The notes: generated from the letters alone by a model not told the origin. DNA of 36,351 bases from Actinomycetota bacterium (GCA_046725875.1 JBKOZJ010000026.1:1-36351), one strand, 5' to 3'; positions 4,082 to 26,151 are shown, numbered from the stretch's first letter. Numbers and translations are program-made.

Positions 4082-4324
4082 TCAGTCGCGCGGGAAGCGT
4101 GGCAGCGGCAATCCGTCGAGGGTGTCATGGACGCATCCGAGCCAATCGCTCCACGCCGCTGGGTCGCTGGCTCGGGCCGGGTCGTTGGTGGGCTCAAGGC
4201 TCACAAGCATCTCTTGCAGCGAGACCGCGTCGGGATCGGGCTCCCGCTCCATGTACTGCCAAATGAGCCGGTAAGCAGCCTCGTAAGCCTGCGCTTGAGT
4301 CAGTTGCAGGTCCTCGTTCGCCAC
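4082..4324 (-). CDS. Small acidic hypothetical protein (80 aa)
   Basis: MANEDLQLTQAQAYEAAYRLIWQYMERE...SDPAAWSDWLGCV; compact helical composition and good codon bias. Confidence 0.6.
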   Translation of the reverse strand: MANEDLQLTQAQAYEAAYRLIWQYMEREPDPDAVSLQEMLVSLEPTNDPARASDPAAWSDWLGCVHDTLDGLPLPRFPRD

Positions 4325-4429: not shown

Positions 4430-5158
4430 ATGCGACGCTTCCACGACGAGGACCTCACCGGCGCAGAATTCCGCGAATGCGACCTGAGCAGAGCGCGGAT
4501 GGTCGGCGTCGTCATGCAGGACGCCGAGATCGACGGCCTGGTCACCAATCTCGTGGTCAACGGGGTCGAGGTGATGCCGTACGTCGAGGCGGAGCTCGAC
4601 CGCCGTCACCCGGTACGACTGCTGATCCGCTCAGATCAGCCGGACGACCTGCGAGAGGCCTGGCGGCAACTGCGGGACGCTTGGGCCACGACCACCGAGC
4701 GAGTTCGGTCCATGCCCCAGAACAGCGAACATCACGGCGTCGACGGCGAGTGGTCGATGGTCGAGACTTTGCGCCACCTCGTCTTCGTGCACGACTCCTG
4801 GTTCCGACGCTGCGTGCTCGGACTCACCGAGCCGTTCACGACCATGGGACTGGGTCCACCGTTCGTCATGGACCAGGAGCAGAACGAGCTCGACCCGTCC
4901 GCCCAACCGAGCCTCGACGAGGTGCTCGCCGTACGAGTCCGACAGGCTTCAGAGATCGAGACATGGCTGGCCGAGGTCACGCCTGATCAGCTCGCGCACA
5001 CCGCCCCGGTCCCGGACGACGACAGATGGCCCCCGTACGCCAGGGGGCGGACAGTGCGGCAATGCCTCGGCACCGTGCTCAACGAGGAATGGGCTCACCA
5101 CCGGTTCTGCAAGCGTGACCTGGACAAACTGTCGCGTCAGGATTCTGCGCACTCGTGA
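4430..5158 (+). CDS. DinB/YfiT-family protein with N-terminal pentapeptide-like repeats
   Basis: N-terminal DLTGAEFRECDLSRARM repeats. DinB-type motifs WSMVETLRHL and EEWAHH. Confidence 0.85.
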   Translation: MRRFHDEDLTGAEFRECDLSRARMVGVVMQDAEIDGLVTNLVVNGVEVMPYVEAELDRRHPVRLLIRSDQPDDLREAWRQLRDAWATTTERVRSMPQNSEHHGVDGEWSMVETLRHLVFVHDSWFRRCVLGLTEPFTTMGLGPPFVMDQEQNELDPSAQPSLDEVLAVRVRQASEIETWLAEVTPDQLAHTAPVPDDDRWPPYARGRTVRQCLGTVLNEEWAHHRFCKRDLDKLSRQDSAHS

Positions 5159-5306
5159 CGGGCAGGTCACGACTGGCGGCAGATCTGGGCGAGCGTAGCC
5201 GCCCTCCACGCGGCATGAGTGTGCTGTGGATTGTCGAATCGCGGTCCTACTGTTCGTGGAACAGATGGGCCGCGACGAAGGAAGCGGACCGGGAAGGAGT
5301 CATGCG

Positions 5307-5687
5307 ATGCCGCAGTACGTGCTGATTCTGGATGCCCACGCGATGGATGACTTCCCCGACGAGGACATGCCGGGCATTGACAAGGCCGCGCACGCCGTCA
5401 GCCAGGAGGCCATCGACGCTGGCGTGTGGGTGTGTGGCAGCGGACTGGAAGAACAGAGGGCAAGCGTGGTGGCCGCCGACGGGACGGTCACCGAGGGCCC
5501 ACGGGTGACCGTCGGTGGACTCACGGTGATCGAGGTGCCGTCACGCGAGGAGGCGCACAAGTGGGCTGCCAAGTGGGCAACCGCGTGCCGCTGCGACCAG
5601 GAAGTCTGGGAACTCGGGTACGACCCCAAGATCGACGCGATGCTCCGAGAGGCTGCAATCCTGAAAACCCGGCCCGACAAAGCCTGA
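5307..5687 (+). CDS. YciI-family protein
   Basis: AAGGAG RBS before ATG 5307. Motifs VAADGTVTEGP, GGLTVIEVPSREEAHKWAAK and ACRCDQEVWE. Confidence 0.85.
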   Translation: MPQYVLILDAHAMDDFPDEDMPGIDKAAHAVSQEAIDAGVWVCGSGLEEQRASVVAADGTVTEGPRVTVGGLTVIEVPSREEAHKWAAKWATACRCDQEVWELGYDPKIDAMLREAAILKTRPDKA

Positions 5688-5902
5688 GGCCGCCCCGGAG
5701 AGGATGTGTGCTCCCGTCGCATCGACCGCTCATCGGCAGATCCGTGCGTTGGGTCGCGTCGACTCCCACGAGAACCTAGGGTCGGACATTGGGTTGGTCC
5801 CTTCCGAGCTTTCGGGGTGACAGGGGATCTGCCAAGGGACCGCTTCACCGACACACCGGTGGAGCGGTCCCGCCATGTCGGGGGACCAGGTGCCAAGATC
5901 GG

Positions 5903-6008
5903 AGTCCGCAGAAAGTCCGCAAGACGTCCGTCTGGCGTCAACGGCAGCCAACGCGAGCAAACGCAGAAATCACAGGTCAGAGCACTGATCAGAAAGGTTC
6001 CCGCAGGT
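5903..6008. repeat. 11-bp-periodic direct repeats, possible integrase arm-type sites at an island end
   Basis: AGTCCGCA at 5903 and 5914 and GTCCG at 5926, followed by CAGGTCAG (5973) and CCCGCAGGT (about 6000). Confidence 0.35.
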
Positions 6009-9000
6009 GTTCTACGCGGACCTGCACATCCATTCCAAGTATTCGCGGGCCTGCAGCAAGGACGGTGACCTCGAGCACCTTGCCTGGTGGGCCCGGCGCA
6101 AGGGCGTCGCAGTCCTCGGCACCGGCGATTTCACGCATCCCGCCTGGTTCGACCACCTGCGTGACCTGCTCGAACCCGCCGAGCCTGGGCTCTTCCGGCT
6201 CCGTGCAGAGCTCGACCGGCAGGTGGTGCGAACGCTGCCGCCCAGCTGCCGCAGCAAGGTCCGCTTCATGCTGTCGGTCGAGATCTCGACGATTTACAAG
6301 CGCGACGAACGCACCCGAAAGGTGCACCACCTGGTCTACGTCCCGGACTTCGACACTGCGGCCGAGATCAACCGACGGCTGGCCAGGATCGGCAACCTGG
6401 GCTCGGACGGCCGGCCGATCCTCGGCCTCGACTCACGCGATCTCCTCGAGATAACGCTCGAGAGCGGCGCCGGCGCCTACCTGGTGCCCGCGCACGTCTG
6501 GACGCCATGGTTCGCGGTGCTCGGCTCGAAGTCCGGCTTCGACGCTGTCCACGAGTGCTACGCCGACCTGGCCGAGCACATCTTCGCGCTCGAGACCGGC
6601 CTATCCAGCGACCCGGCGATGAATTGGCGGGTCTCCGCGCTCGACAGATATCGCCTGGTCAGCAACTCTGATGCGCACTCACCGCCGATAATTGGCCGGG
6701 AGGCGACGGTCTTCGACACCAACGTCGATTACTTTGCGATCCGGCGCGCGCTCCAGACCGGTGCGGGGCTGGCGGGAACGATCGAATTCTTTCCCGAGGA
6801 GGGGAAGTACCACCTCGACGGCCACCGGAAGTGCAACCTCCGGCTCGAGCCGGCCGAGACCCGGGCCGCCGGAGGGCGCTGCCCGACCTGTGGTAAGCCG
6901 GTCACCGTGGGGGTTCTCCACCGGGTCGAGGAGCTCGCCGACCGCATACGTTGTGTACGGCCGACCGGCGCGGCGCCCTTCCGGGGCCTGGTCCAGCTGC
7001 CGCAGGTGATGGGCGAGATCTTGGGGGTGGGCTCGCGGAGCAAGAACGTGTACGGGGAAATAGCGGCGCTGACCGCCGCCCTTGGACCCGAGCTGTACAT
7101 CCTCGACACGATGCCCCTCGGCGAGATCGAGGTGCGGTCGCCGGTGCTCGCGGAGGCCGTCCGGCGGCTGCGCAGCGGCGAAGTGGCACGCGAAGCCGGC
7201 TATGACGGCGAGTACGGCATCATCCGCGTCTTTCAACCGGGCGAGCTCGACCACGAACGTGCTGGCACCACCGACGTACTTTTCCACGGACCGATTCCCA
7301 CACCACGCACCCTGCCCCGCCGCGATCCGACCCTTGATCGCCGGCAGGCGGGACCGAGAAATACGGGCATTCACCGTGGTCACCGGCAGGAAGGGTCGGA
7401 TTCTGACCCTGCCCAGCCGGTGGTCAGCGGAGAAGACGGGGGAAACCTGTCTGAGCTGGCGGTGATCACGGAGATCGGACCTGTTTCGGTAGAAGAGCCG
7501 ATAATCATGGGCTCAGAGCGGCTGGATCCGGAGCAGCGGGCGGCCGTCCAGGCCGCGCCCGGGCCGGTGCTGATTGTCGCCGGTCCTGGTACCGGAAAGA
7601 CGAGAACGCTGACCCACCGAATCGCGCATCACGTGCGCGCGGGCATCGTCGAACCGGAGCAGTGCCTGGCGATCACGTTCACCCGGAGGGCCGCGGCCGA
7701 GATGGCCGACCGCCTCGGCCGCCTACTGGCCGACGGTGCGTCACGGGCCACAGTGACAACCTTCCACGCGATCGGCCTACGCATCCTGAGGGAGCATCAC
7801 GATCGTCTAGGTCTTACCGCCGACTTTGGGATCGCGACCGAAGCCCAGAGGCTCGACATACTCACAGATTTCATCGGCGAGCGCCGGGCGGCGCGCACCG
7901 TACTTGCGGATCTGAGCGCTGCGCGGCGTGGCGGGGTTGGTTCGGATGGGTTTCATGAACGCTATGTCGGCGCGCTGCGCGAGCGTGACCTCGTCGATTT
8001 CGACGATCTCGTGGTCGAGCCGGTGGTGATGCTCGACGCCGACCCGACCCTCGTCGCAGACTATCGGCGGCGCTTCCAGTTAATCGCTGTCGACGAGTAT
8101 CAAGACGTCGACGTCACGCAGTACCGCCTGCTGCGGCATCTCGCACCGCGCGACGGAAACCTGACCGTCATCGGGGACCCGGACCAATCCATCTATCGCT
8201 TCCGCGGTGCAGACGTCGGTTTCTTCCTGAGCTTCAAGCAGGACTATCCGACGGCAACGGTTGTGGAGCTGAGCTGTAACTACCGTTCCACGGCTCCTAT
8301 CGTCGGCGGTGCCCTCCAGGCGATCGCGCCGGCGAGCCTGGTGCCTAACCGCCGTCTGACGCCTGCGCCCTCCGTGCACGGCGGCCATCGGGGGGAGACG
8401 AGCGGCACGGAACTGCCGGCGCCCATCGGTCTGCACCACGCCTCCGACGAGCATGCCGAGGGCTCCTTCGTGGCCCGCACGATCGATCAGCTTCTTGGCG
8501 GCTCGTCCTTCCACTCGCTTGACAGCGGCCGGGTCGACGGTTTCGGCAGTGATTCCTTGTCCCTCGCCGACATCGCGGTGCTTTACCGAACGGATGCACA
8601 GGCCACGCCCGTTATGGAAGGGCTCACCCGAGCCGGCATACCGTTTCAGAAGCGCTCTCACGACCGTCTCGCCGTGCGACCCGGCGTACAAGAAATCGTG
8701 CACGAGCTGAAGTACAGGACGGCTCGGGCGGACCAGGCAGAGTATGCCGGCGGCCTCAAGACGTCTCCGTCGTGGGCAGTCGAGGCGCTCTTTCCCGAAC
8801 CGCCTGCATTGGTCGCGGATCGCGTCAAGACCGCGGCCGCCGCCATCCTCGCTCGGAGGTCGACAACCAGGCTCCGGGCGCCCACCGCAGTGTCGAACAC
8901 CATCGCATCAGGGCTGCTGGAACCCAAGGTGCAACCATCTGCGCCGGAGGATGCCCATACACGAGAGGCCGAGATCCATACGGCGGTCGAGTTGCTGATG

Positions 9001-9438
9001 CCGCTCGCGATGCGCTGCGGCGACGACGTCGAGCGCTTCCTGGCGGAGCTGGCGCTCGGCGCCGAGGTCGACACCTGGGATCCGCGGGCGGACCTCGTCT
9101 CTCTGCTCACTCTGCATGCATCCAAGGGCCTGGAGTTCCCCGTGGTGTTCATCGTCGGCTGCGACGACGGTCTGCTGCCGCTGCGACCGGCGGGCGTGAC
9201 CGGGCGTCCGCTCACTGTCGACGAGATTGCCGAGGAGCGGCGGCTCTTCTTCGTCGGCATGACCCGCGCCCGTCGCCACCTCTTCCTCAGTCACGCGGCC
9301 GAGCGGACCCGGCGCGGCGCCACACATCCGGCCTCGCCCTCACCCTTCCTCGCAACCATCGCGACCGCGCTGATCGAACGGATCGGCGCCACGATGCCCC
9401 GTCCACGGCGGCAGGCGACCCAGCTCCGCCTCATGTGA
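6007..9438 (+). CDS. Endonuclease Q-family PHP nuclease fused to UvrD/PcrA superfamily-1 helicase (1143 aa)
   Basis: EndoQ motifs ADLHIHSKYS, GTGDFTHP, SVE, VHH, PAH, ETGLSSD, SNSDAHS and zinc finger GKYHLDGHRKC...CPTC, plus AGYDGEYG. Helicase motifs AGPGTGKT, TFTRRAA, DEYQD, GDPDQSIYRFRGA, NYRS, TLHASKGLEF and EERRLFFVGMTRA. Confidence 0.93.
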   Translation: MFYADLHIHSKYSRACSKDGDLEHLAWWARRKGVAVLGTGDFTHPAWFDHLRDLLEPAEPGLFRLRAELDRQVVRTLPPSCRSKVRFMLSVEISTIYKRDERTRKVHHLVYVPDFDTAAEINRRLARIGNLGSDGRPILGLDSRDLLEITLESGAGAYLVPAHVWTPWFAVLGSKSGFDAVHECYADLAEHIFALETGLSSDPAMNWRVSALDRYRLVSNSDAHSPPIIGREATVFDTNVDYFAIRRALQTGAGLAGTIEFFPEEGKYHLDGHRKCNLRLEPAETRAAGGRCPTCGKPVTVGVLHRVEELADRIRCVRPTGAAPFRGLVQLPQVMGEILGVGSRSKNVYGEIAALTAALGPELYILDTMPLGEIEVRSPVLAEAVRRLRSGEVAREAGYDGEYGIIRVFQPGELDHERAGTTDVLFHGPIPTPRTLPRRDPTLDRRQAGPRNTGIHRGHRQEGSDSDPAQPVVSGEDGGNLSELAVITEIGPVSVEEPIIMGSERLDPEQRAAVQAAPGPVLIVAGPGTGKTRTLTHRIAHHVRAGIVEPEQCLAITFTRRAAAEMADRLGRLLADGASRATVTTFHAIGLRILREHHDRLGLTADFGIATEAQRLDILTDFIGERRAARTVLADLSAARRGGVGSDGFHERYVGALRERDLVDFDDLVVEPVVMLDADPTLVADYRRRFQLIAVDEYQDVDVTQYRLLRHLAPRDGNLTVIGDPDQSIYRFRGADVGFFLSFKQDYPTATVVELSCNYRSTAPIVGGALQAIAPASLVPNRRLTPAPSVHGGHRGETSGTELPAPIGLHHASDEHAEGSFVARTIDQLLGGSSFHSLDSGRVDGFGSDSLSLADIAVLYRTDAQATPVMEGLTRAGIPFQKRSHDRLAVRPGVQEIVHELKYRTARADQAEYAGGLKTSPSWAVEALFPEPPALVADRVKTAAAAILARRSTTRLRAPTAVSNTIASGLLEPKVQPSAPEDAHTREAEIHTAVELLMPLAMRCGDDVERFLAELALGAEVDTWDPRADLVSLLTLHASKGLEFPVVFIVGCDDGLLPLRPAGVTGRPLTVDEIAEERRLFFVGMTRARRHLFLSHAAERTRRGATHPASPSPFLATIATALIERIGATMPRPRRQATQLRLM

Positions 9439-9710
9439 CGGGACGCAGAGCTCCGAAGCGCCAGGTGCGGGACTGGAAGGACGCGGCCGCCGCGGTGACC
9501 GAGATGGAGACCGCCTGGGCGAGGTTTCGCGCCGGAGAGGTGGCCCCCGCCAACGTGACTGCCCTGAACGGCCTGATCGGGACGCTTCAGGTTGTCGGCG
9601 CGGACAAGGAGCTCGACGCCGCGGCCAAGCCGGCCGGGAAGTGCGTGAGCTCGTGTCCCGGATTGAAGCGACCGGGAGCTGACCCGCAGGTTGGTCCAAA
9701 CAAGGCGTGA
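9435..9710 (+). CDS. Possible small helical hypothetical protein or gene remnant (91 aa)
   Basis: GTG overlaps the helicase TGA (GTGA). DWKDAAAAVTEMETAWARFRAGEV segment has coding-like codons. Confidence 0.35.
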   Translation: MTGRRAPKRQVRDWKDAAAAVTEMETAWARFRAGEVAPANVTALNGLIGTLQVVGADKELDAAAKPAGKCVSSCPGLKRPGADPQVGPNKA

Positions 9711-9779
9711 GCAACAGCTCTGAGCGCCACCTGCCGGGGCCCAACGCGGGTAGTCCGGACGAGGTGTAGAACAGGAGAC

Positions 9780-11870
9780 ATGGCCCGGCGGAACGACGAG
9801 GTCGGCGGGCTGTTGCAGGAGTACGCCGATCTGCTGCGGATCACCGGCGGCGAGGAATACAGGGCGCGAGTGTACGAGAAGGCTGCGCGCGCGGTCGCCG
9901 GTTACCACGAAGATGTTGGGAAGCTCGGCGAGGATGGGCTGCAGCGGATCCCGGGTGTGGGCGCCTCGATTGCTACTAAGATCGCCGACTACCTGAAAAC
10001 CGGCCGGATGGATGCGCTCGAGGGACTGCATGCGAAGATCCCCGCCGGCGTCCGCGAGCTCCTGGTCATCCCCACGCTCGGTCCGCGCAAAGCGATGGTG
10101 CTCTACCAGCAGCTTGGCATCGCATCGGTCGCCGAGCTGGTCGACGCAATTGATGCGCAGAGGCTGCGCGGCCTGAAGGGATTTGGTCCGAAGACGGAGG
10201 AGCAGCTCCTGCACGGCGTCGAGCTCCTGCAGCGTGCGGGACACCGGGTGCACATTAACGTCGCGATGGACCTGGCCGAGGAGATCGTCGCCGCGCTGTC
10301 CGTCATCGCCGGCTGCCATCGCTGCACATACGCGGGCTCGCTGCGCCGGTACAAAGAGACGATCGGCGACATCGACATCCTCGCCGCGGCCCAAGATCGG
10401 GCCGCTGCGAAGATCACGAAGGCCTTTTCATCGCTGCCGTACGTCGACCAGGTCATTGCGACGGGTGGCACGAAGACCTCGATCCGTACGACCAAGGGCC
10501 TGCAGGTGGACCTGCGGGTCGTGCGGCCGGAATCGTGGGGTGCCGCGCTGCAGTACTTCACCGGGTCCAAGGCTCACAACATCCGCACGCGCGAGCTCGC
10601 CGTACACAACAAGCTGAAGCTTTCTGAGTACGGCCTGTTCGACGCCGAGACCGATGACGTCATCGTCTCGGAGACCGAGGAGGAGGTCTATGGGCGCCTA
10701 GGGCTGCCTTGGATCCCACCGCCGCTGCGTGAAGACCGCGGGGAGATCGAGGCAGCCCAGCGCGGAGAGCTTCCCCATCTGGTCGCCGAGCAGGACCTGC
10801 GCGGCGACTTGCATACCCACACCAATCTCACCGATGGTGTCTCGTCGCTCGAGGAGATGGTCGAGGCCGCGGCGGCGCGCGGCTATGCGTACTACGCAAT
10901 CACCGACCATGCGCCGAACCTCTACATGCAGCGCATGTCCGATGAGAAGATGCGCGCCCAGCGCGAGCGGGTGCGCACGCTCGACCGGCGGTACGGAAAG
11001 ATGCGGCTGCTGCATGGGACCGAGCTCAACATTGGTCCGGACGGCTCCGTGGACTGGCCGCCGGAGTTCCTCGCCGGCTTCGACATTTGTGTCGCTTCCG
11101 TTCACTCGCACTTCGATCAGAACCGCGACACCATGACGAAGCGGTTGCTGCACGCGATCGAGAACCCGTACGTCGACATCATCGGTCACCCGACCGGCCG
11201 CCAGATCGGGCGCCGCGCCGGCATCGACGCCGACCTGGACGAGGTCTATCAGGCATGCGCGCGCACTGGAACGATCCTGGAAATCAACGCCTACCCTGAC
11301 CGGCTGGACCTCAACGACGACGAGATCCTGCGGGCCAGGCACTATGGCGTGAAGTTTGCGATCGACAGCGACTCGCACTCCACGGTCCACCTGGCTTTCA
11401 TCCGATACGGCGTCGGTATGGCGGAGCGTGGCTGGCTCACCGCCGAGGACGTGGTAAACACCTGGCCGCTGCGGCGGCTTCGGTCCTACCTCTCCAGGCA
11501 TCGGCCCGCCAAGGCGAGCGCGTTATGCAGATCGTCGAGGAGACACCGGTCAGGTTCCGCATCGACCCGGCGGGTGAAATGCGGGTGCCGGGGATCGTGT
11601 TCGCCTCGAAGGCGCTCATCCCCGACGCGCAGGCGGACAAGTCACTCGAGCAGGTTGCGAACGTGGCAACGCTGCCCGGCATCGTGGCCGCGTCGTTCGC
11701 GATGCCCGACGTGCATTGGGGGTACGGGTTCCCGATCGGCGGGGTCGCCGCGACGGATGTGCCGGCCGGTGGTGTGGTTTCTCCGGGCGGGGTGGGCTTC
11801 GACATCTCGTGCGGTGTCCGGCTGCTCGCGGCGGGCGGTCTGGACCGAAGCGCCCTGCACGGCCGGCTGA
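9780..11870 (+). CDS. polX: DNA polymerase X with C-terminal PHP exonuclease domain; homologous part ends at about 11525 and the ORF reads through into rtcB
   Basis: AGGAG RBS. HhH motifs IPGVGASIA and KGFGPKT, catalytic GSLRR...GDIDIL and VDLR, YFTGSK. PHP motifs DLHTHT, TDH, SVH, GHPTG and DSDSH. Confidence 0.95.
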
Positions 11871-12943
11871 CGCCGCTCATGGATGGGCTCGACCGGGCGA
11901 TCCCACGAGGGCCCGGCCGCGGGGCGGTGTGGCACGTAAGCCGGACCGAACTCGCAAAGATTCTCATCGGCGGGTCCCGATACGCCGTAGAGCGTGGCCA
12001 CGGGGTCACCCGCGACCTGGATCGCTGCGAGGACGGAGGTGCGGTGGACGGCGCTGATCCGGCCCAGATCAGCGACCGCGCCGTCGAGCGCGGCGCCGGG
12101 CAGGTGGGCAGCCTCGGGTCCGGGAACCACTTCCTCGAGGTGCAGGCGGTCGCCGATGTGTACGACGAAGGGGCGGCGGCGGCGATGGGTCTGGGGATGG
12201 GTCAGGTTTGCGTGATGATCCATTGTGGCTCTCGTGGCCTCGGTCACCAGATCTGCACCGACCATGTGCGGACGATGGAGCCGGCGATGGCGAAATACGG
12301 CATCGCCGTACCAGACCCACAGCTCGCCTGCGCGCCGGTTGACTCGCCCGAGGGGCAGGCGTATCTCGGCGCGATGGCGGCCGCCGCGAACTACGCCCGG
12401 GCGAACAGGCAACTGCTCGGTGTGGCCGCGCGGCGGGTGTTCGAACGGGTAACCGGCCATTCCCTCGAGCTTGTCTATGACATCTCGCATAACCTCGCGA
12501 AGGTCGAGACGCATCAGGTGGACGGGTCGGCCCGCCAGCTCTGCGTGCATCGGAAAGGCGCCACTCGCGCGTTGCCGCCAGGGCATGCCGACGTTCCGTT
12601 CGAGCTGGCCGAAGTTGGCCAGCCGGTCCTCATCCCCGGCACAATGGGCACATCGTCCTACGTTCTGGCCGGAGTGGCGGGCGGCGAAGCCTTCGCGTCC
12701 ACCTGCCACGGTGCTGGACGCCGGCAGAGCCGCCACCAGGCCGCCCGCGGTACCGGTGGCAAGGAGCTCCGCCGATCGCTCGAAGCCCGGGGAATCGCGG
12801 TTCGTGGCGCATCGTGGCGCGGTCTCGCCGAGGAGACTCCCACTGCTTACAAGGACGTCGACGAGGTAGTCGACGTCGCGCAGCGTGCCGGCCTCTGCCG
12901 CAAGGTCGCACGCCTCGTCCCCGTCGGCGTCGTCAAGGGCTGA
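11525..12943 (+). CDS. rtcB: RtcB RNA 3'-phosphate/5'-OH ligase (archaeal/eukaryotic-like clade)
   Basis: [64 protein letters not shown] and [11 protein letters not shown]. Confidence 0.97.
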
Positions 12944-12965
12944 TCGCCTCCCGTCTCCAACGGTG

Positions 12966-13086
12966 GAAGGGACCTTGCTTCTACGACTTCGGAGCAAGGG
13001 TCCCTTCGACTCCCCATGGTTTGGAGTCCTGTTATCCGTGCCGGGGCGCAGCCCCTTCTACGCCAAGCGGTTCGGAGCAAGGGTCC
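12966..13086. repeat. Structured intergenic element (hairpins + 16-bp direct repeat), probable bidirectional terminator/REP-like element
   Basis: Stem GAAGGGACCTTGCT/AGCAAGGGTCCCTTC (12966-13007) and stem GACTCC/GGAGTC (13008-13028). TTCGGAGCAAGGGTCC occurs at 12988 and 13071. Confidence 0.6.
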
Positions 13087-13096
13087 TGCTGCTTGG

Positions 13097-13513
13097 CTAT
13101 ACGTCGATGGTTACCTCGCACCGCCAGCCGCGGGTCGTGTGCTCCATGCGCAGCTCGTGCAGGGCGACCGCCTTCGGCGTGGCTCCCACAATCTCGGCGG
13201 CGGTCAAGTTGGCGGTGGTGAGGCGAAGGTGTGCACCGTCGTCGGTGGGCTCCACAGTGATCCCGATCGGGATCTCGCCGGTGGTGTCTACAACGTAGAT
13301 GACCTCGTCGAGCACTGCGACGAGGAGCCGCTCATCGATGTACTCGATGAGCTCGGCCTCGTAGGTCCCGCTTGGGGACACGCCGGATGTGTCGGCGAAC
13401 CCCTCCACCAGACCGCGCACCGCCTCGGTGATGCACTCTTCCCGGGTCGGCGCCCAAGCCTGGATGCGCACGTCGGCCGTGTGGGGCACCCGCCGATACC
13501 CACGATCAGCCAC
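13097..13513 (-). CDS. Archease (RtcB activator, SHS2 fold)
   Basis: GYRRVPHTADVRIQAW N-terminus, LLVAVLDEVIY, PKAVALH and C-terminal IDV. Likely GTG start at 13513. Convergent on rtcB. Confidence 0.92.
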   Translation of the reverse strand: MADRGYRRVPHTADVRIQAWAPTREECITEAVRGLVEGFADTSGVSPSGTYEAELIEYIDERLLVAVLDEVIYVVDTTGEIPIGITVEPTDDGAHLRLTTANLTAAEIVGATPKAVALHELRMEHTTRGWRCEVTIDV

Positions 13514-13789
13514 GGCGCAAACCGTAGCCCTAGACAGGCGGTAAGCGGCAGTCGTCGAGACAGGAGTTGCGATCAGTAGGAAAGCTTGCTCAAGCGTCGA
13601 TCGTGGAACCGCCTGGTTGCGAGGCCGCCGGCCGTCCACCCTGCCCGCCAGCCAGCTCGAGGTTCTCTGTGGCAGCAATCAATCGCGCGCGCTCTGCGGC
13701 CTCGGCGTCCGCCAGGTGATGGAACGAGCCCGGTATGGGACGGCCGCACACGGCAAGCTCGCTTTCAGTTACCGGAGTCTAGGCCGTTA

Positions 13790-13960
13790 CGAACGGCGAT
13801 TACCCGATCAATGGCCTGCATCGCGCAACGAGGGGCGCTCACCGGGTCAATCTCTGCCGCCTCCGCATCCGAACCGCGCTGACCTGGTCAATCTCTGGCA
13901 CCTCCGCGGACGAACGACGCTTACCTGATCAATCTCTGGCGTTCCTGCGACGATCGGAGT
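13790..13960. repeat. Degenerate tandem repeat, about 4 units of 39-41 bp
   Basis: Units start at 13790, 13829, 13870 and 13911 (partial at 13951). Core TCAATCTCTG at 13847, 13888 and 13929. Confidence 0.75.
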
Positions 13961-14493
13961 GGATCATCCTTTGGCATCCCGGCGTGACTTCGATCACGCA
14001 TTGGATCGAGGCATGGCATCGCTGCAGTACGAAATCGGCGAATTCTTAAGGCGGAACTGCCAACTCTTGATCCAACAAGTGATCAATTTGCTGCACCGCT
14101 GCCCCGCCCTGATCGTCTTCTCTCTCTGGTACTGCAGCGCCGCCACGCCCTGATCGGCTTGTCGATGCCATGCCGGACGGCCGCAGTGACTTGATCGCGA
14201 ACGACCCACTGTGCCGGGGTCCAGCTCGGTCGCTAGAGCCGGTGGCCGGGCCTGATCCTCACGCACTAAATGCCGGACCGCGAGCGCTGGACGGTGGGCG
14301 ATCGGTGTCGCAGGCTCCGCGGCCCGAACACGGGAATGGTTTGATCATGAGCTCGGGGTGCCGACCGGCTTTCGCGGTCGCTGGGGCGTACGGAGATCTG
14401 GGTCAAGCGCGACGACCTCACCGGTTTCATGCTCGCCGGTAACAAGGCTCGCCAGCTGATGCCGGCGCGCTAGCCGACGCGGCCATCGCCGGG

Positions 14494-15417
14494 CTAGGGC
14501 CGTGGCGCGAGGCGGAGCTGCTCGCGGCGGCGGCGGAGTATCGCCGCTAGGTCGGCCCGAACTCGATCGGCATCGCGGAGGCGGGCCGGTGTCAGCCGAA
14601 GCGGCAGCCAGCCCCGCTCGGCCAGAGCAGCGTCGCGCAGCATGTCGCGCTCTCGGTCTCCCTGACCGGTGTGGTACTGAGGACCGTCCAGCTCGACGTC
14701 GACCAGCTCCTCTTCGTATGCCACGTCGAGATAGACGGTCCTGCCGCCGAGATTGACCGGCAGCTGAAGTATGGGCCTCGGCAGCGACGGATGGTCGAAG
14801 ATCTCGCGGTATCCCCAAAGTTCCAGTTGGCTTCGGCAGCCCTCGGCGAGTAGATGAAGCAGGGCAAGCAGGCTGGCGCGTCCCTTGATAACAGGTGCGC
14901 TGAGGGTGGTCTCGGAGAGCCGAGCGACAGTGGTCAGCCGGTCTCCGATCGACTGGATCGCAGGCGATCGCCGACGGTGCGGATCGTCGATCATTGACCA
15001 CGACTCGACGATCGCGCGCTCGAGCCGGACGAGCGAGAAACCGTTACGCTCGGTGGTCCACGGTGGACCGATCCTGAAGTCCCGCCGGCGGTGCACCACG
15101 ATCCCGTCCCGCGTCCTCGCCGACGAGGTTGCGGGAACAGTGACATGCACCGACACGGACGGTGGGACCACCAGGCCGAACACCTCCAGCGCTGACAGGT
15201 GGCTGATCGCGCCCGTATCGCCGGCATAACGCAAAGCGGCATGCTTTCGCGTCGCGTCGTCGATCGCCCCCGACGAGGTGTACGTGCCAGGAGCGAGCCG
15301 AACCAGCCGCCCCGTCCGTACCGCGTAGTCGAGGCAGTGCCGTGGAGCGACCGCGAGCGCCTCGGCTCGCCGCACCACGCCCCGCTCTCGCACCAGGTTG
15401 ACCAGCTCCCGCCGCAT
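14494..15417 (-). CDS. AbiEi-like N-terminal wHTH / DUF559 (Vsr-like PD-(D/E)XK) protein
   Basis: N-terminal GVVRRAEAL...GRLVRLAPGTY and AISHLSAL. C-terminal GCRSQLE, YLDVAY, VELDGPQYH and RDAAL..RGWLPLR. Confidence 0.8.
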   Translation of the reverse strand: MRRELVNLVRERGVVRRAEALAVAPRHCLDYAVRTGRLVRLAPGTYTSSGAIDDATRKHAALRYAGDTGAISHLSALEVFGLVVPPSVSVHVTVPATSSARTRDGIVVHRRRDFRIGPPWTTERNGFSLVRLERAIVESWSMIDDPHRRRSPAIQSIGDRLTTVARLSETTLSAPVIKGRASLLALLHLLAEGCRSQLELWGYREIFDHPSLPRPILQLPVNLGGRTVYLDVAYEEELVDVELDGPQYHTGQGDRERDMLRDAALAERGWLPLRLTPARLRDADRVRADLAAILRRRREQLRLAPRP

Positions 15418-15885
15418 CCAAACGACGGTGGAGCACCCGCCCCGCCGGCACTAGGCGCGCCCGCCGATCTGTGGGTTAACCGCGCCGAATTCTTGACCCT
15501 GTGGAGCCGCCTGCATCGACTCGGAAGCGGGATGGGGCGGCGCACCGCAAACCAGAGCTCGGCCGCTCCATGCAGTCGCGGTTCGCCCAGCAGCGGTTCA
15601 CCCGGCCGCGGTTCACTCCGCCATGGCACAGCTGCGGTCCAGCCAGTTCCGGTGCTCGGGCAAGGCACCCCTCACCACTTATCCAGCCTGGCTGCAAGCC
15701 GACTGCGACACCGGCTCCTAGTGCAAACATGATCGATCGCCGCAACTCGGTCCAGGATCACGCCCGTAGACCGCGCGGCCCTCACTGCCCAATGACAATG
15801 GCGTCATCGGCGGTCAGTGGACATTTGAAGCATCTCCCGCCGGTGGACGAGTCAGCTCCACCTGGAGCGGAGGGAGGCGCGAAGC

Positions 15886-16626
15886 GTGGACGGCCCGTGG
15901 CCTGATACGGCCGAGACGCTCATCGCCGAACAGCTCAGGCTGGCTGCCGTACAAACCGAGCCATGGCCGCCGGCGGCCTACCTCCACCGCTCGGCCAGGT
16001 CCGAGTCGCGGTTCGCGGCAGAGCAAGTCACGGTTGGTGGGTGTTGGGTGTGTTTTCCGCGCGGGCTAACCGGTACGGGCGCGGCGGGCGAGCCGGCGTG
16101 GGCCGCGGCGGTCGTCAGGCGCGGACGGCGACAGCTCGACCAACACGTGACGACCGGTCTCGCGACCGGTCCATACGCGCCTGGGTTGCTTGCCTTGCGC
16201 GAGGGTCCGCTGCTGGAGGCAGCGGTACGCGGTCTGAGGGCGCCGCCGGACGTACTCCTCGTCAACGCGACCGGACGGGACCACCCGCGACGGGCGGGGC
16301 TCGCGGTGCACCTGGGCGCCGTTCTGGCGATCCCGACAGTCGGCGTCACCGACCGCCCGCTGGTGGCTGCCCCCGGTCCGGCACCGAGGGATGAGTACGC
16401 GGCAAGGAGTCCGCTATCTCTGGACGGCGAGATCGTGGCGTACTGGCTCAGAACGAGGGTCGGCCGCCGCCCTGTCCTCGTACATCCAGGCTGGCGCGTG
16501 CCCCCAGAGGTGGCGGTCGACCTCGTCGTCCGGTGCGCTGGCCGGCACCGTACCCCGGCGCCGCTGCGCGAGGCCCGGCGCCTCGCCAGGGAAGCCCGCG
16601 CCCATGACCAGGACGCCCTCAGGTAA
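15886..16626 (+). CDS. nfi: Endonuclease V-family protein with divergent catalytic residues
   Basis: GGAGG RBS. PYAPGLLALREG, DVLLVNATGRDHPRRAGLAVHLG, IPTVGV, PVLVHPG and RTPAPLR. Confidence 0.88.
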   Translation: MDGPWPDTAETLIAEQLRLAAVQTEPWPPAAYLHRSARSESRFAAEQVTVGGCWVCFPRGLTGTGAAGEPAWAAAVVRRGRRQLDQHVTTGLATGPYAPGLLALREGPLLEAAVRGLRAPPDVLLVNATGRDHPRRAGLAVHLGAVLAIPTVGVTDRPLVAAPGPAPRDEYAARSPLSLDGEIVAYWLRTRVGRRPVLVHPGWRVPPEVAVDLVVRCAGRHRTPAPLREARRLAREARAHDQDALR

Positions 16627-16639
16627 GAGAAATCGACCG

Positions 16640-16858
16640 GTGCTGCCGGGGCCTGGAACGGGCGCGCTTCACTTTGACGACGCGCGACGAGCGGGTCACC
16701 TTTGGAGCCAAGCCTTGGGAGGTGGACCGCTTGGCCGCCTCGGCGCCACCGCGCGGACAGCGATAACTACCCCGACGATCCGGAACTTCGTCGTAGGGGC
16801 GGATTCCGAAGGAAACACCCTCTGCGCGGCCGACAAAGGCGGCGCGGTCACGGCTTGA
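16640..16858 (+). pseudogene. Decayed VOC/glyoxalase-like gene (internal deletion + frameshifts)
   Basis: Across frames it reads DDARRAGHLWSQALG (N-terminal motif), then EVDRLA-LGAT, DNYPDDP and NFVVGADSEGNTLC (C-terminal DPEGN-type motif). Confidence 0.55.
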
Positions 16859-18746
16859 CGAGGGTGCGGGCGGCGTCCGCGATGGCGGCGGCGTCGATCC
16901 CCGCCGCCCGAAGCTGCTCGGCCGGCGTCGCCGACGCGGGCATCGAGCCAACCCCGAGCTGGGCGAACCGCGGCACCTGCCCGTTGCTGGCCAGCGCGGC
17001 GAGAACGGCGTCGCCGAGGCCTCCTTCGAGCCAGTGGTCCTCCACGGTGACTATGTGCCCAGTCTCGCCGGCGGCCCAGCGCAGAGTTGCCTCGTCAATC
17101 GGCTTGACGGAGTACAGGTCGATCACCCGGGCAGAGATGTCCTCGCCGGCAAGTTGCTCGGCGGCGCGCAGCGCCTCGGCGACCGTCACGCCGGCCGCGA
17201 CGATCGCCACCCGGTCGTCCGGCGTGCCGGCGATCACCTTGCTGCCGCCGATCGGAAAGTCCTCGTCCGGGCCGTAGATGACCGGCGTCTCGCCGCGGGT
17301 GGTCCGGAGGTATGAGATCCCCGAGCGGTCGGCCATAGCTGCGACGAGCGCCGCCGTCTGGTTCGCGTCACACGGGTAGAGGACGGTGCTCCCCTGGACG
17401 GCGCGGAACGCCGCGAGATCCTCCAGTCCCATCTGGGACGGGCCGTCCTGCCCGATCGCGACGCCGGCGTGCGAGCCGACCAGCCTCAGGTTGGCCCGGC
17501 TGACCGCGGCCATGCGGATGAAGTCGTACGCCCGAGTGAGGAAGGCGGCGAAGGTCGCCGCGAACGGCACCCAACCCCGCACTTGCAACCCCACCGCCGC
17601 GGCGATCATCTGCTGCTCGGCGATGTAACACTCGACGAACCGATCCGGGTGTGCCGTCGCGAACTGCTCTGTCCGGGTTGAGTCGGCCACCTCGCCGTCG
17701 AGCACGACAATGTCGCCGCGCGCATCTCCGAGCGCCGCGAGCGCCGCGCCGAAGGCGTCGCGGGTCGCGATCTCCTCGCCGACTTCGTAGCGGGGCAGTG
17801 TCGGCGTTCCTCGGCGACGGTCGGGAAGCTGCACTGGTGGCGGCTCAGCGACGCGGACCCGGATCGAACGTTCGCCGCCCAGCTCCGCGACCGCCGCCTC
17901 GGCGTCCTTCAGCGGCTTGCCGTGCGCGCCTTCCTTGTCCTCGACAGCTGACCCGCCCTTGCCCTTCTTTGTACGGGCCAGGATCGCGGTCGGGCGGTCG
18001 GAGCCAATCGCTTCGCCGTACGCGCGGTCGATCTGTGCCGGATCGTGTCCATCGATCTCGACGATGTGCCAGTCGAAGGCGCCGATCCGCCGTGCATATG
18101 CAGCGGTGTCCCACTCGTGTCTGGTCGGTCCTCGCTGGCCCAGCCGGTTGACGTCCACGATCGCGGTCAGGTTGGCCAGCCTCTCGTGGCCTGCATGCTC
18201 AAAGGCCTCCCACATGGATCCCTCGGCGAGCTCGCTGTCGCCGCAAAGCACCCACAACCGATAAGGCGCGCGGTCGAAGCGCTTGCCGGCAAGCGCCATC
18301 CCGACGCCGATGGGCAGGCCCTGGCCGAGCGAGCCGGTCGCTACGTCGACCCACGGCAGGCGCGGCGTCGGATGGCCTTCGAGCCGGCTGCCCTCCTTCC
18401 GGAAGGTCAGCAGCTCCGCGTCAGTGATTGCCCCGGCCGCCTTGTAGATCGCGTAGAGCAGCGGGGAGGCATGGCCCTTCGAGAAGATCAGGTGATCGTT
18501 CCCGGGTTGGTGGGGCCGGTGGAAGTCGTAGCGCAGGTGCCGCGCCAGCAGGACGGCCATCAAGTCCGCTGCCGACATCGACGAGGTCGGGTGCCCCGAC
18601 CCCGCCGCCGCAGAGCAGCGCACCGCGTCGACCCGCAGCTGCTGGCCCAGCTCAGCGAGCTGCACATAGTCGGGTAGCTCGGCGGGAGATTCAGTGGGGC
18701 GCCCCGCAGGACTGGTGACGTCAGCCATGACCAGTGGCCTACCCAT
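16848..18746 (-). CDS. tkt: Transketolase (compact single-chain type); start may be 18728
   Basis: SGHPTSSMS, SKGHASP, LEGHPTP, TGSLGQG, ThDP motif GDSELAEGSMWEA...DVNRLGQ, IAEQQM and GQDGPSQM. Confidence 0.93.
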   Translation of the reverse strand: MGRPLVMADVTSPAGRPTESPAELPDYVQLAELGQQLRVDAVRCSAAAGSGHPTSSMSAADLMAVLLARHLRYDFHRPHQPGNDHLIFSKGHASPLLYAIYKAAGAITDAELLTFRKEGSRLEGHPTPRLPWVDVATGSLGQGLPIGVGMALAGKRFDRAPYRLWVLCGDSELAEGSMWEAFEHAGHERLANLTAIVDVNRLGQRGPTRHEWDTAAYARRIGAFDWHIVEIDGHDPAQIDRAYGEAIGSDRPTAILARTKKGKGGSAVEDKEGAHGKPLKDAEAAVAELGGERSIRVRVAEPPPVQLPDRRRGTPTLPRYEVGEEIATRDAFGAALAALGDARGDIVVLDGEVADSTRTEQFATAHPDRFVECYIAEQQMIAAAVGLQVRGWVPFAATFAAFLTRAYDFIRMAAVSRANLRLVGSHAGVAIGQDGPSQMGLEDLAAFRAVQGSTVLYPCDANQTAALVAAMADRSGISYLRTTRGETPVIYGPDEDFPIGGSKVIAGTPDDRVAIVAAGVTVAEALRAAEQLAGEDISARVIDLYSVKPIDEATLRWAAGETGHIVTVEDHWLEGGLGDAVLAALASNGQVPRFAQLGVGSMPASATPAEQLRAAGIDAAAIADAARTLVKP

Positions 18747-23674: not shown

Positions 23675-24637
23675 TCAGCGACGCTTTGCTTGGTCGAGCC
23701 TGGCGCGCGCCTCGGCAACCGCGCGGACCGCTTCCTGCTGGGCGGCCCGGACCAGCGCCAGCCGCTGCTCCGCTGCAACCTTCTCGCGGCGGGCCTCGAT
23801 TCGCTGGCTATCCAACCAGTCGATGCGGTCCCTGGCGGCCTCGAGCGCTGCCTCGGCATCGGCCAGGTCATGCTCGCGTTGCCAATGTGCCGCCTCGGCC
23901 GCCGCGAGCTCCGCTTCCGCTTGCCGGACTCGCGCATACAGTGATCCGGTTTGCAGGGGCTCTTCGGCTTCGTCGCCGTACTCAACCTCATGGTCGGTGG
24001 CCGGCCTGCCGGACTGGGACGGTATGACACGGAGCCCGCCCCCGGTGAGATCGTCCCCCAAGTCTGCCCATGCGCCCGCGTCGACCACGCTGAGCTGCCA
24101 ACCACCAGGCCCGTCGTCCTCGTTCTTCACGGGCACGTCGACCTGGGGCAGCGGGCCGAAGCCGTTGTGCGACATGGGTCGGACAAGGCGACCGGACAAG
24201 ATCGTGAAGGACCCGGCCAGGTCGACCAGGGCCGCGTGCAAAGTCCCCTCGACCTCCAGGAGCACCGCGTCACTCGCCGGGCTCCCGGCCTGGGCCGCCC
24301 GCTGCCGCGCCCGGTCGACCAGGTCGGCGACGAGCCGATGGCGGAGCCCGGACAGGGGGGCCAGTTTTGCCGTATCGAGCTCGGTCTGCGCCTGCCGCAG
24401 CTCTCGCCCGATCGCCAGCAGCCGGTCCAGCTCTGTGCGGTCGTGCCTAGCCAGCAGGTTGACGAGCCAGGCGCTTCGTGTGGGGCGGCGGAGATGCCCG
24501 AGCTGTCGGGCGAGGTCGGGGTTGCCAGCAGCCTTGGCCCGGCGGACCAACTCGTCCCGGGCAGCTACGAATTGCCCCGGGGGGACGAGATACAGCTCGG
24601 CCGCGATCTCGTGGGCATCGGTCAGCTCAATCGTCAT
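23675..24637 (-). CDS. Conserved actinobacterial hypothetical protein with C-terminal coiled coil (paralogue of 26152..27051)
   Basis: GGGGAG RBS before ATG 24637. AELYLVPPGQFVAARDEL...LRRPTRSAWLVNLLAR and GRLVRPMSHNGFG. Confidence 0.8.
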   Translation of the reverse strand: MTIELTDAHEIAAELYLVPPGQFVAARDELVRRAKAAGNPDLARQLGHLRRPTRSAWLVNLLARHDRTELDRLLAIGRELRQAQTELDTAKLAPLSGLRHRLVADLVDRARQRAAQAGSPASDAVLLEVEGTLHAALVDLAGSFTILSGRLVRPMSHNGFGPLPQVDVPVKNEDDGPGGWQLSVVDAGAWADLGDDLTGGGLRVIPSQSGRPATDHEVEYGDEAEEPLQTGSLYARVRQAEAELAAAEAAHWQREHDLADAEAALEAARDRIDWLDSQRIEARREKVAAEQRLALVRAAQQEAVRAVAEARARLDQAKRR

Positions 24638-24667
24638 CGCAACTCCCCGAGCTAGCCTACGGCGTGG

Positions 24668-24738
24668 TACCCCACGAAATCTTCGCTCGCTTGGGCACCC
24701 TACGAAATCCTCGCTCGCTTGGCACCTCGGATCGCTCG
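24668..24738. repeat. 28-bp tandem direct repeat in the divergent promoter upstream of ku
   Basis: ACGAAATCTTCGCTCGCTTGGGCACC (24674) and ACGAAATCCTCGCTCGCTTGGCACC (24702), with partial TCGCTCG at 24732. Confidence 0.7.
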
Positions 24739-24781
24739 GTAGCGGTGGTGACTTGTGCCGGTTGTGGGGGAGACTCACAGG

Positions 24782-25771
24782 GTGAAGAGCGTCTGGAAGG
24801 GCGTAATTTCGTTCGGCCTGGTCTCGATCCCGGTCCGGCTATTTTTGGCAACCGAGGAGCGCGGCGTCGCGCTGCACCAGGTCCATGTCAAGGACGGCGG
24901 CCGGATCCGCTACCGGCGGTTCTGCACGGTCGACGGCGAGGAGGTGCCGTTCGAGGACATCGTGCGCGGCTACGAGCTGCCGACCGGCGAGGTCGTTGTA
25001 CTCACCGCCGAGGACTTCGCCAACCTGCCGCTTTCCACCAGCCGGGCGATCGACGTGCTGAGCTTCGTGGACGCGGAAGCTCTCGATCCGGTCCAGCTTG
25101 TGCGGTCCTACTTCTGTGAGCCGGCTGACTCAGATCCCAAGCCGTATGTCCTGTTCCGGGACGCCCTCGAGCGCACCGGACGGGTCGCGATCGTCAAGGT
25201 CGCCCTGCGGCAACGGGAGTCGCTGGCGGCGCTCCGGCCCCGCAACGGCGTGCTCATGCTGCAGATGATGCTGTGGCCGGACGAGATCAGGGAGCCGCGC
25301 TTCCCCTTCCTCGACGAAGATGTCTTGCTGCGCCCGCAGGAGCTCCAGATGGCCAGCGCCTACGTCGAGGCAATGACCGGTCAGGTTGAGGGAGCGGAGC
25401 TGATCGACCGCTACCGGGTCGCCTTGGAGCAGTTGGTCGAGGCGAAGATCGGCGGCCACATGATCGAGCAGCCGCCGGCTCCGGTTCCGGCGGCGGGCGT
25501 CGACCTCATGGAGGCGCTCCGGCAGAGTGTCGAGGAGGCCAAGCGGGCCCGTGGCGAGCAGCCGGCGGCGCCGGCGCGGGCCACCGCCAAGCGGGCGCCC
25601 AAGCGGGCCGCACCGCGGGCGGCCGACCGGCCGAAGTCGGTCAAGAAGGCCGCGGCAAAGAAGACAGCCGAGACCGGCGCCCGAACCAGGTCGACACCGG
25701 GTCGGGCGACGGCGGCCAAGAAACAGACGACGCAGAAGGCGACGGCAAAGAAGGCGTCGACCCGCCGCTGA
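24782..25771 (+). CDS. ku: NHEJ DNA end-binding protein Ku
   Basis: VKSVWKGVISFGLVSIPVRL, GGRIRYRR, RGYE, KPYVLFRDAL, MLWPDEIR, DRYR, VDLMEALRQSV and a Lys/Ala-rich C-terminal tail. Confidence 0.96.
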   Translation: MKSVWKGVISFGLVSIPVRLFLATEERGVALHQVHVKDGGRIRYRRFCTVDGEEVPFEDIVRGYELPTGEVVVLTAEDFANLPLSTSRAIDVLSFVDAEALDPVQLVRSYFCEPADSDPKPYVLFRDALERTGRVAIVKVALRQRESLAALRPRNGVLMLQMMLWPDEIREPRFPFLDEDVLLRPQELQMASAYVEAMTGQVEGAELIDRYRVALEQLVEAKIGGHMIEQPPAPVPAAGVDLMEALRQSVEEAKRARGEQPAAPARATAKRAPKRAAPRAADRPKSVKKAAAKKTAETGARTRSTPGRATAAKKQTTQKATAKKASTRR

Positions 25772-25800: not shown

Positions 25801-26013
25801 ATGCGCTGGTTCGCTGGTTCGATCTATGCCGGCATGGTGGCGTTCGTCTGGATCAACGGCGGGGTATCCATCGCGCTACTCGTTCTGGCCTGCGTGCTCT
25901 TCCTCACGGCGACGATGCGAGTCGATCTGATGGGGGAGTGGGCGTCCGGCTGGGCGGAGTGGATCGCGCGGCGCCGGCGGACCCGACCGCCGGCATCAAC
26001 GTCGGGCCGTTGA
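25801..26013 (+). CDS. Small membrane protein (70 aa)
   Basis: GGGAGG RBS, two hydrophobic segments and a basic tail. Confidence 0.55.
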   Translation: MRWFAGSIYAGMVAFVWINGGVSIALLVLACVLFLTATMRVDLMGEWASGWAEWIARRRRTRPPASTSGR

Positions 26014-26151
26014 AGCCAGGCCGGCAATCGGTCGGTTGCTGTTTGATCCGCCAAGCGGTTCGTACGAGAGCCTGCCTAACCGCATCCGCAACGTGGGGCT
26101 CGGGTTATGTGCGCTCGGCGGATCAAACAGGCCAATGGCCGGCACCCTGGG

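Follow-up and report, generated by a model that had tools for sequence, protein, structure and literature searches.

The locus analysed here raises the question of whether repair genes that lie side by side in one genome also work together. It is carried by a contig of 36,351 nt from an Actinomycetota bacterium (GCA_046725875.1, JBKOZJ010000026.1:1-36351), and this complete contig is referred to below as the window; its source is a metagenome-assembled genome (MAG) of 197 contigs that is 89% complete. Five of its genes encode a fusion of endonuclease Q with a UvrD-type helicase (EndoQ-UvrD), a family-X DNA polymerase with a PHP domain (PolX), RtcB, the RtcB activator archease and a relative of endonuclease V (EndoV-like). 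A sequence-only reading had interpreted them as a single island in which lesions would be nicked, unwound, filled and sealed. Profile and structure-sequence matches place all five genes at the coordinates, in the order and on the strands assigned by that reading, and EndoQ-UvrD, polX and rtcB are indeed co-oriented, all three on the + strand. On comparison with other genomes, the region is probably a lineage-specific juxtaposition of four independent units and not one pathway. The features on which the argument rests are given below, with the basis of each.

6007 to 9438, + strand: EndoQ-UvrD fusion gene, a single open frame of 1143 amino acids.
6016 to 7233, + strand: EndoQ domain, a PHP-type nuclease with a zinc ribbon (alignment to 5zb8).
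7519 to 9435, + strand: UvrD/PcrA-type SF1 helicase domain (PF00580, PF13245 and PF13361 matches).
9421 to 9435, + strand: C-terminal QLRLM tail, a motif like those binding the beta-clamp (translation; tail in homologues).
9439 to 9779, no strand: EndoQ-UvrD/polX spacer of 341 nt, carrying an AGGAGA ribosome-binding site ahead of the polX start ATG (sequence).
9780 to 11522, + strand: PolX core, a pol-beta-like polymerase plus a PHP domain (NF006375; 3au2 alignment).
11523 to 11870, + strand: polX read-through tail, running out of frame over the 5' part of rtcB (junction comparison; GC by codon position; end of the open frame).
11525 to 12943, + strand: RtcB of the long archaeal/eukaryal type, 472 amino acids (PF01139; 1uc2 alignment).
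12963 to 13010, no strand: strong hairpin in the spacer where rtcB and archease converge (fold and inverted repeat I1).
13097 to 13513, - strand: archease, 138 amino acids from the GTG at 13513 (PF01951; translation; end of DNA homology).

Conservation of this arrangement was assessed in three samples. The first consists of 80 RtcB-centred loci taken from species genomes, mainly Streptomyces, with at most 10 kb per side; at least 2.2 kb of upstream DNA is present in 74 of them. The second consists of 80 PolX-centred metagenome loci of 58-85% identity, informative in 66 cases for the downstream side (at least 600 nt) and in 47 for the upstream side (at least 1.5 kb). The third is a class sample of 401 evenly drawn genomes, among which the window genome is G000. 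One member of this sample, G020, is an unpublished genome, on which the statements made below about its fused EndoQ-UvrD, PolX, RtcB, EndoV-like protein and the Asn at the Asp110 position of the latter depend (the fusion gene is carried by one contig, those for PolX, RtcB and the EndoV-like protein by others); locus L093 likewise belongs to an unpublished genome.

A co-oriented polX gene lies upstream of rtcB in 7 of the 80 RtcB loci (L002, L003, L006, L010, L013, L061 and L079), or in 5 when only the 74 loci with sufficient upstream DNA (2.2 kb or more) are considered. It directly abuts rtcB in L010, L013 and L061, is separated from it by one gene in L006 and by several in L079, and belongs to loci cut by contig ends in L002 and L003. 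EndoQ, UvrD and EndoV were found in none of the 80. Within the class sample, full-length PolX occurs in 19 genomes, RtcB in 154 (the long type in 19) and EndoQ in 38; polX adjoins rtcB only in the window genome and in G005, and four genomes (G020, G149, G320 and G395) possess both PolX and the long RtcB at non-adjacent positions. EndoQ and polX are neighbours in the window genome only, among 11 genomes holding both. The informative metagenome loci display no RtcB downstream of PolX (0/66) and no EndoQ or UvrD upstream of it (0/47). In L139, a locus with only 308 nt of downstream DNA, the contig finishes with a short opposite-strand RtcB-like piece (4194-4293) some 200 nt beyond polX, which may represent a convergent polX/rtcB arrangement.

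The closest relatives define the extent of what is shared. Homology at the DNA level between the window and G005 is confined to 9755-13535, so that polX-rtcB-archease is the sole block held in common with this closest relative, and the G005 DNA upstream of polX contains neither EndoQ nor UvrD. Homology with G003 ends exactly at the end of polX; its PolX is 85% identical, 10 kb of downstream DNA is devoid of RtcB and none was found in the genome. No RtcB was found either in G006, where polX is followed by a gene for a Kup transporter, and neighbour clustering revealed no conserved PolX neighbour across families. Taxonomy is mirrored in the trees of both PolX (27 rows) and RtcB (81 rows). The linked polX-rtcB state requires three changes on the former and four on the latter, three of them being forced by well-supported branches, and the pairing occurs in at least three lineages, namely the window's family, Actinopolymorpha alba and Streptomyces. 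The polX-rtcB link is rare and easily lost. The gene-neighbourhood survey that the sequence-only reading had proposed as its own check went against it: linkage is not kept in other genomes for the outer genes, and largely not for polX and rtcB.

Within the shared block, the PolX protein matches NF006375 with 512 bits (cut-off 426) over residues 10-574 and its alignment with T. thermophilus PolX (3au2, 484 bits) spans the entire protein. The GDxD and VDLR motifs, the HxH of the PHP domain and the later PHP motifs are kept relative to 3au2, the residue numbering of the polymerase Asp triad being that which we assume for PolX, and the active sites are intact. Full-length homology extends to the other bacterial PolX-PHP proteins compared (D. 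radiodurans 2w9m and B. subtilis PolX), from which the window gene differs by its former coupling to rtcB and by the 116-residue out-of-frame tail that it now carries. The polX/rtcB junction reads GCGTAATGCAG in the loci of three relatives (L002, L003 and L086) and GCGTTATGCAG in the window, the overlap being TAATG in the former and TTATG in the latter. The polX stop codon has accordingly become TTA instead of TAA (11523-11525), and the frame stays open to 11870, giving an open reading frame of 696 amino acids. The GC content of the 116-codon tail by codon position (0.50/0.86/0.72) is of a non-coding type, as compared with 0.69/0.43/0.84 for the polX core, and PolX of G003 ends normally with an open frame of 584 amino acids. 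The TAATG of the relatives confirms the proposal that polX and rtcB were originally coupled stop to start; the alignments identify the ancestral junction as a translationally coupling overlap whose stop has since been lost in the window.

RtcB and archease form the more constant part of the block. The window RtcB, the only one found in its genome, scores 543 bits against PF01139 and 489 bits against P. horikoshii RtcB (1uc2), with which the MPDxH, CGVR, GSGNHF, HxGSRG, HN and CHGAGR motifs are identical; no replacement affects the catalytic His (of CHGAGR) or the metal ligands Asp, Cys and His. The archease matches PF01951 with 89 bits (cut-off 25), stays below the NCBIfam equivalog level (48 versus 126) and is 73% identical to its counterparts in L002, L003 and L086. 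The GTG at 13513 is its likely start because the translation fits and the DNA homology to a relative ends at 13535. As had been noted, the gene is convergent, on the minus strand and facing rtcB. The DNA between the two (fold of 12940-13100) has a folding energy of -69.4 kcal/mol (z -2.74), and the hairpin at 12963-13010 is likely to serve as a two-way terminator. The same spacer contains an exact 16-nt direct repeat, TTCGGAGCAAGGGTCC, at 12988-13003 and 13071-13086, each copy constituting one hairpin arm. Archease adjoins rtcB in 77 of the 80 RtcB loci, convergently in 71 and co-oriented in 6. PMC3973293 and PMC4604427 describe the rtcB-archease couple as a tRNA splicing or RNA repair pair in P. 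horikoshii and T. thermophilus. The window shares with these organisms the long RtcB type, all catalytic motifs and the adjacency of archease, and differs from them in the convergent orientation of archease, which is thereby outside the rtcB operon (as in 71 of the 77 loci), and in the coupling of polX upstream in its lineage.

In the best-supported picture, the block is a 3.8-kb cassette with RtcB and its activator archease as conserved core, to which polX has been added in a few lineages. In that of the window, the PolX-PHP gene has become translationally coupled to rtcB through the TAATG overlap. The likeliest consequence would be that a polymerase able to fill DNA gaps and clean 3' ends is expressed together with a pair of proteins that re-ligate RNA, with a division of labour in which broken RNA would be the target of RtcB and DNA that of PolX. 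The cassette would then belong to a stress or dormancy programme, for which the mycobacterial Rv2629-Rv2631 block offers a comparison. It lies beside unrelated repair genes and, in the window genome only, between EndoQ-UvrD and unrelated DNA that ends in the EndoV-like gene.

The gene upstream of this cassette deserves a separate description. Residues 4-409 of the fusion protein align end to end with residues 5-383 of P. furiosus EndoQ (PfuEndoQ, PDB 5zb8; E 5.6e-40), and the TIGR00375 score of the fusion protein is 127.8 bits, under the whole-protein cut-off of 326.6. Relative to 5zb8, the DLHIHS, VHHL, PAH and SNSDAHSP motifs and the Glu at the E76 position are kept, as is every aligned position among the PHP-type metal ligands, and the EndoQ active site is intact. 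Residues E76, H84 and H139 are essential in PfuEndoQ according to PMC8307549. The window domain shares the whole fold and the metal ligands with the archaeal enzyme (5zb8, 7k30), from which it differs by its fusion to a complete UvrD-type helicase and by a zinc ribbon of the form HxxC...CxxC in place of CxxC...CxxC, the first Cys being replaced by His. The helicase occupies residues 505-1097 (PF00580, 226 bits; PF13361, 105 bits), displays the Walker A motif GPGTGKT and stays below the NCBIfam equivalog cut-offs for PcrA, UvrD and Rep; by these scores it is a UvrD family member outside the PcrA, UvrD and Rep orthologues.

A single polypeptide combines EndoQ and UvrD in 15 of the 17 loci retrieved, and a stand-alone EndoQ of approximately 430-550 amino acids was seen in one family of the class sample. 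Fused homologues of approximately 1000-1190 amino acids are common in actinomycetes, with hundreds of database entries under generic labels such as 'UvrD-helicase domain-containing protein' or 'TIGR00375 family protein'. Neighbour clustering gave no conserved neighbour of EndoQ-UvrD across families, and no paper describing an EndoQ-helicase fusion was found in a literature search: EndoQ-UvrD is a widespread, stand-alone and unstudied actinomycete fusion. The idea of a combined nicking and unwinding step gains support from the shared polypeptide, since both domains would then act together, with a nick placed 5' of a deaminated or abasic site and the helicase opening the duplex from there. The C-terminus reads QL(R/S)LL in 11 of 12 fetched homologues and QLRLM in the window protein, a tail that resembles the beta-clamp-binding peptide and through which the enzyme would probably be tethered to the sliding clamp. 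This clamp-like tail has a parallel in the PCNA-binding motif of archaeal EndoQ, whose partnership with PCNA is mentioned in PMC8307549. Just upstream of the fusion gene lies a weak YCII-like gene (5226-5687, +), a homologue of which (50% identity) directly follows polX in G008 (L085, 11847-12173, -); EndoQ-UvrD may therefore be inserted between two older neighbours.

EndoQ-UvrD is set apart from polX by the 341-nt spacer, and polX possesses a ribosome-binding site of its own, both of which speak against a single island. DNA homology to the polX loci of relatives begins only at 9755-9766, and the preceding 9439-9754 is without counterpart in them and may be a rearrangement joint; one of its frames resembles leftover coding sequence. 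Scans of 5000-17000 returned no sigma-70 promoter and five terminator-like sites, a number equal to chance. For the DosR-like box GGGACN4GTCCC, from which the motif of the host's own regulator may differ, 24 matches with at most two mismatches were obtained versus 45 expected. An FNR-like pattern is over-represented across the whole window (45 versus 30 expected); neither it nor the DosR-like box occurs in 9439-9779. CRP-like patterns are at or below chance in number and none stands out before polX. Rfam yielded nothing at gathering level in the whole window and nothing at E up to 1 in 12900-16000 and 9350-9850, including any TPP-like RNA beside archease, and no tRNA was found in the window. 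A near-palindrome with a GTGA-N6-TCAC core is located at 13983-13998, within a non-coding stretch of about 0.8 kb upstream of archease; about one such site per window is expected by chance.

Beyond archease, two further genes complete the region.

14494 to 15417, - strand: AbiEi_4/DUF559 (MTES_1575-like) gene, outside the repair set (Pfam).
15886 to 16626, + strand: EndoV-like protein with a degenerate active site (PF04493).

The interval from rtcB to the EndoV-like gene thus comprises the hairpin, the convergent archease, about 0.8 kb without a convincing frame and the AbiEi_4/DUF559 gene. The latter, found in none of the 80 RtcB loci, is an unrelated, insertion-like neighbour in DNA of lower GC content (0.652 at 13001-15000, the window minimum). 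The EndoV homologue begins about 2.4 kb beyond the archease start, as had been stated. It is the sole PF04493 match in the genome (129 bits) and scores 119.7 against an NCBIfam equivalog cut-off of 230. With Endonuclease V of T. maritima (2w35) and E. coli (4xpu) it has in common the fold family and the wedge region PYxPGLLAxRE. On alignment with these two proteins, Glu89 is kept and the position of T. maritima Asp110 is occupied by Asn; on alignment with canonical actinomycete EndoV (G008 and G034), the Asp43, Lys139 and His214 positions, the last two of which we take to belong to the EndoV active site, are Trp, Asp and Trp. Asp43, Glu89 and Asp110 are crucial for EndoV according to PMC5561087, and only Glu89 of the three is present in the window protein. 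The same pattern extends to the clade formed with the proteins of G003, G005, G006 and G020, in which Asp43 is replaced by Trp or Phe, the Lys of GVAK by Asp or His and the His of GH by Trp, with Glu89 and Asp110 each lost in some members. Because this clade has lost catalytic residues, the EndoV-like protein is probably not a nuclease; it would bind nucleic acids at most, without nicking. Members of the clade (the window protein and L090-L093) are 61-65% identical to one another, are devoid of most catalytic residues and have gained a PRGxxGxG insertion, and they constitute a candidate pseudo-nuclease family.

The genes found around this RtcB type in other genomes resemble the dormancy genes of mycobacteria. 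A phosphoribosyltransferase (PRTase) cluster is the commonest neighbour of long-type rtcB-archease in Streptomyces, with 43 loci and Pfam confirmation for two members; the gene is the immediate upstream neighbour, is one gene removed or is situated some 2.6-3.4 kb downstream (L009, L020 and 41 others). In L020, the rtcB frame is open for 398 further codons upstream, with no Pfam family. Other neighbours of this type include a CBS gene (L005), a PGA_cap gene situated between polX and rtcB in L006, and Usp and PNPOx genes situated likewise in L079. A gene for a full-length homologue of the ribosome hibernation factor Balon/Rv2629 is also present in the window (27790-28902, -; 8v9k, E 3e-28; baeRF_family2), preceded with a 4-nt overlap by a calcineurin-like metallophosphoesterase gene (28899-29663, -); an NTP_transf_5 gene and an ANTAR regulator are located further on. 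For Rv0574c and Rv2630 we rely on presumed family assignments, and we know of no PolX in the Rv2623-Rv2631 block of M. tuberculosis. RtcB is listed among the frequent neighbours of Balon in PMC10901736, and Rv2631 (RtcB), Rv2630 and the PRTase Rv0571c are DosR regulon members in PMC5309233, which also covers the Rv2623-Rv2631 block. This block resembles the window in that RtcB and a Balon homologue share one contig here as well, and the PRTase, Usp, CBS, PNPOx and PGA_cap families of the DosR regulon are also represented in the RtcB loci of relatives. It differs from the window, where 15 kb separate Balon from rtcB, the two-component pair is of OmpR type, and neither a DosR-like box nor a DosR-type regulator was encountered. 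The suggestion of a dormancy kit for DNA and RNA repair can consequently be retained for polX-rtcB-archease, on account of the shared block, the dormancy-like neighbours and Balon, and finds no support for the entire island.

A Ku gene is also present (24755-25771, +; PF02735, 159 bits), 12 kb downstream of rtcB. No Pfam ligase domain was found beside it, the flanking frames (23675-24778 and 25938-27051) being without family, and no other locus showed Ku in the vicinity of RtcB or PolX. When the other window genes (Ku, Balon, the metallophosphatase and so on) were sought near RtcB or PolX elsewhere, only three matches were obtained: a weak baeRF match in L057, a metallophosphatase in L050 and the YCII-like gene beside PolX in G008.

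These results allow the competing explanations to be weighed. A single route in which EndoQ-UvrD, PolX, RtcB/archease and EndoV would successively nick, unwind, fill and seal deaminated bases or dirty ends draws on the location of all the genes inside 10.6 kb with three of them co-oriented, on the lack of a convincing terminator between uvrD and polX, and on the co-occurrence of EndoQ, PolX and the EndoV-like gene in the same relatives. It is contradicted by the adjacency of EndoQ-UvrD and polX in the window genome only (1 of 11 genomes, none of the 47 PolX loci, none of the 80 RtcB loci) and by the EndoV-like gene, which is without catalytic residues, is set off by the convergent archease, the hairpin and the unrelated AbiEi_4/DUF559 gene, and in no other locus lies close to rtcB. 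EndoQ nicks carry 3'-OH and 5'-P ends, which are not RtcB substrates, as the sequence-only reading had itself cautioned. The idea that RtcB stands where a DNA ligase would be expected fails too, since the window's genome possesses LigA as well as ATP-dependent ligase domains at five places and RtcB is not substituting for a missing enzyme. The single pathway is largely refuted by the absence of conserved linkage, and we regard it as the least credible of the readings considered. An artefact of the MAG, in which TTA for TAA would be a base error or the contig a chimera joined within the 9439-9754 spacer, is very unlikely. The fragmented and incomplete state of the assembly speaks for such an artefact, as do the spacer, which is absent from relatives, and base 11524, which is covered by no public contig, none of the four runs compared extending over 11463-11513 and the nearest piece beginning at 11540. 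Against it, the GC content is even across the joint (0.66-0.675), both flanks resemble one genome family (G003, 75-85% protein identity) and single-base substitutions are uncommon in consensus assemblies.

A narrower proposal treats polX-rtcB-archease as a dedicated end-repair module of non-growing cells, in which all the proteins would share their broken substrates, DNA or RNA-DNA: PolX would fill in and, with its PHP domain, clean 3' ends, and RtcB with archease would seal 3'-phosphate/5'-OH ends. The ancestral TAATG overlap couples translation, the adjacency recurs in at least three lineages in both trees and the active sites of PolX and RtcB are intact. RtcB reportedly joins DNA 3'-P ends in vitro, according to papers of the Shuman laboratory, and a literature search found no paper on RtcB and PolX together, so that the pairing is unexplored. 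RlaP, a Pol-beta-fold nucleotidyltransferase, is moreover a known operon partner of RtcB according to PMC12776372. Like RlaP (PF10127), PolX is a Pol-beta-superfamily enzyme beside rtcB; unlike it, the window protein is a complete DNA polymerase of family X that carries a PHP domain, and it has no PF10127 match in Pfam or NCBIfam. The proposal is weakened by the rarity of the adjacency (two class-sample genomes, 0/66 metagenome PolX loci, 7/80 RtcB loci), by the closest PolX relatives, which lack RtcB altogether or downstream (G003, G006, L129 and L130), and by the loss of the coupling stop in the window. The stress-type genes that intervene between polX and rtcB in L006 and L079 also weaken it, and co-regulation therefore fits better than a complex. 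We consider such a module doubtful, and its more specific form, a break-repair module of a subset of actinomycetes in which RtcB would seal 3'-phosphate/5'-OH breaks in DNA or RNA-DNA hybrids after processing by PolX, unlikely. The preferred interpretation, a juxtaposition of independent units, has its own difficulties. Despite its rarity, the adjacency of polX and rtcB is seen in three lineages or more, far above random placement, and a direct functional tie between the two genes may therefore exist. PolX, EndoQ and the EndoV-like gene occur together in the same few relatives (G003, G006, G008 and G020), EndoQ being present in 11 of 19 PolX genomes versus 27 of 382 others, counts in which kin are not independent; this co-occurrence gives a hint that these organisms share a lifestyle rich in repair. 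With Ku, the contig is somewhat enriched in genes for DNA ends. Stress or dormancy regulation of the polX cassette is unproven here, DosR-, FNR- and CRP-like sites being absent before polX and a look through public RNA runs having yielded none that contains the stretch, and the incompleteness of the MAG and the short contigs of many relatives limit the negative statements.

Genes that lie close together in a single MAG do not for that reason form a pathway, and the complete island is not conserved. Its parts are of interest in their own right. The natural polX-rtcB overlap offers a direct genetic handle on whether RtcB acts on DNA in cells, and the arrangement is present in culturable strains, namely Actinopolymorpha alba DSM 45243 and several Streptomyces. 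If the break-repair module were true, it would provide the first natural genetic context for DNA joining by RtcB, so far an in vitro activity only, and the neighbouring EndoQ-UvrD, tethered to the clamp, would in that case stand as a further, independent enzyme that nicks and unwinds in the service of the same survival lifestyle. EndoQ-UvrD itself emerges as a very common, unstudied candidate repair enzyme of actinomycetes, which would combine lesion nicking, unwinding and probably clamp binding in one protein.

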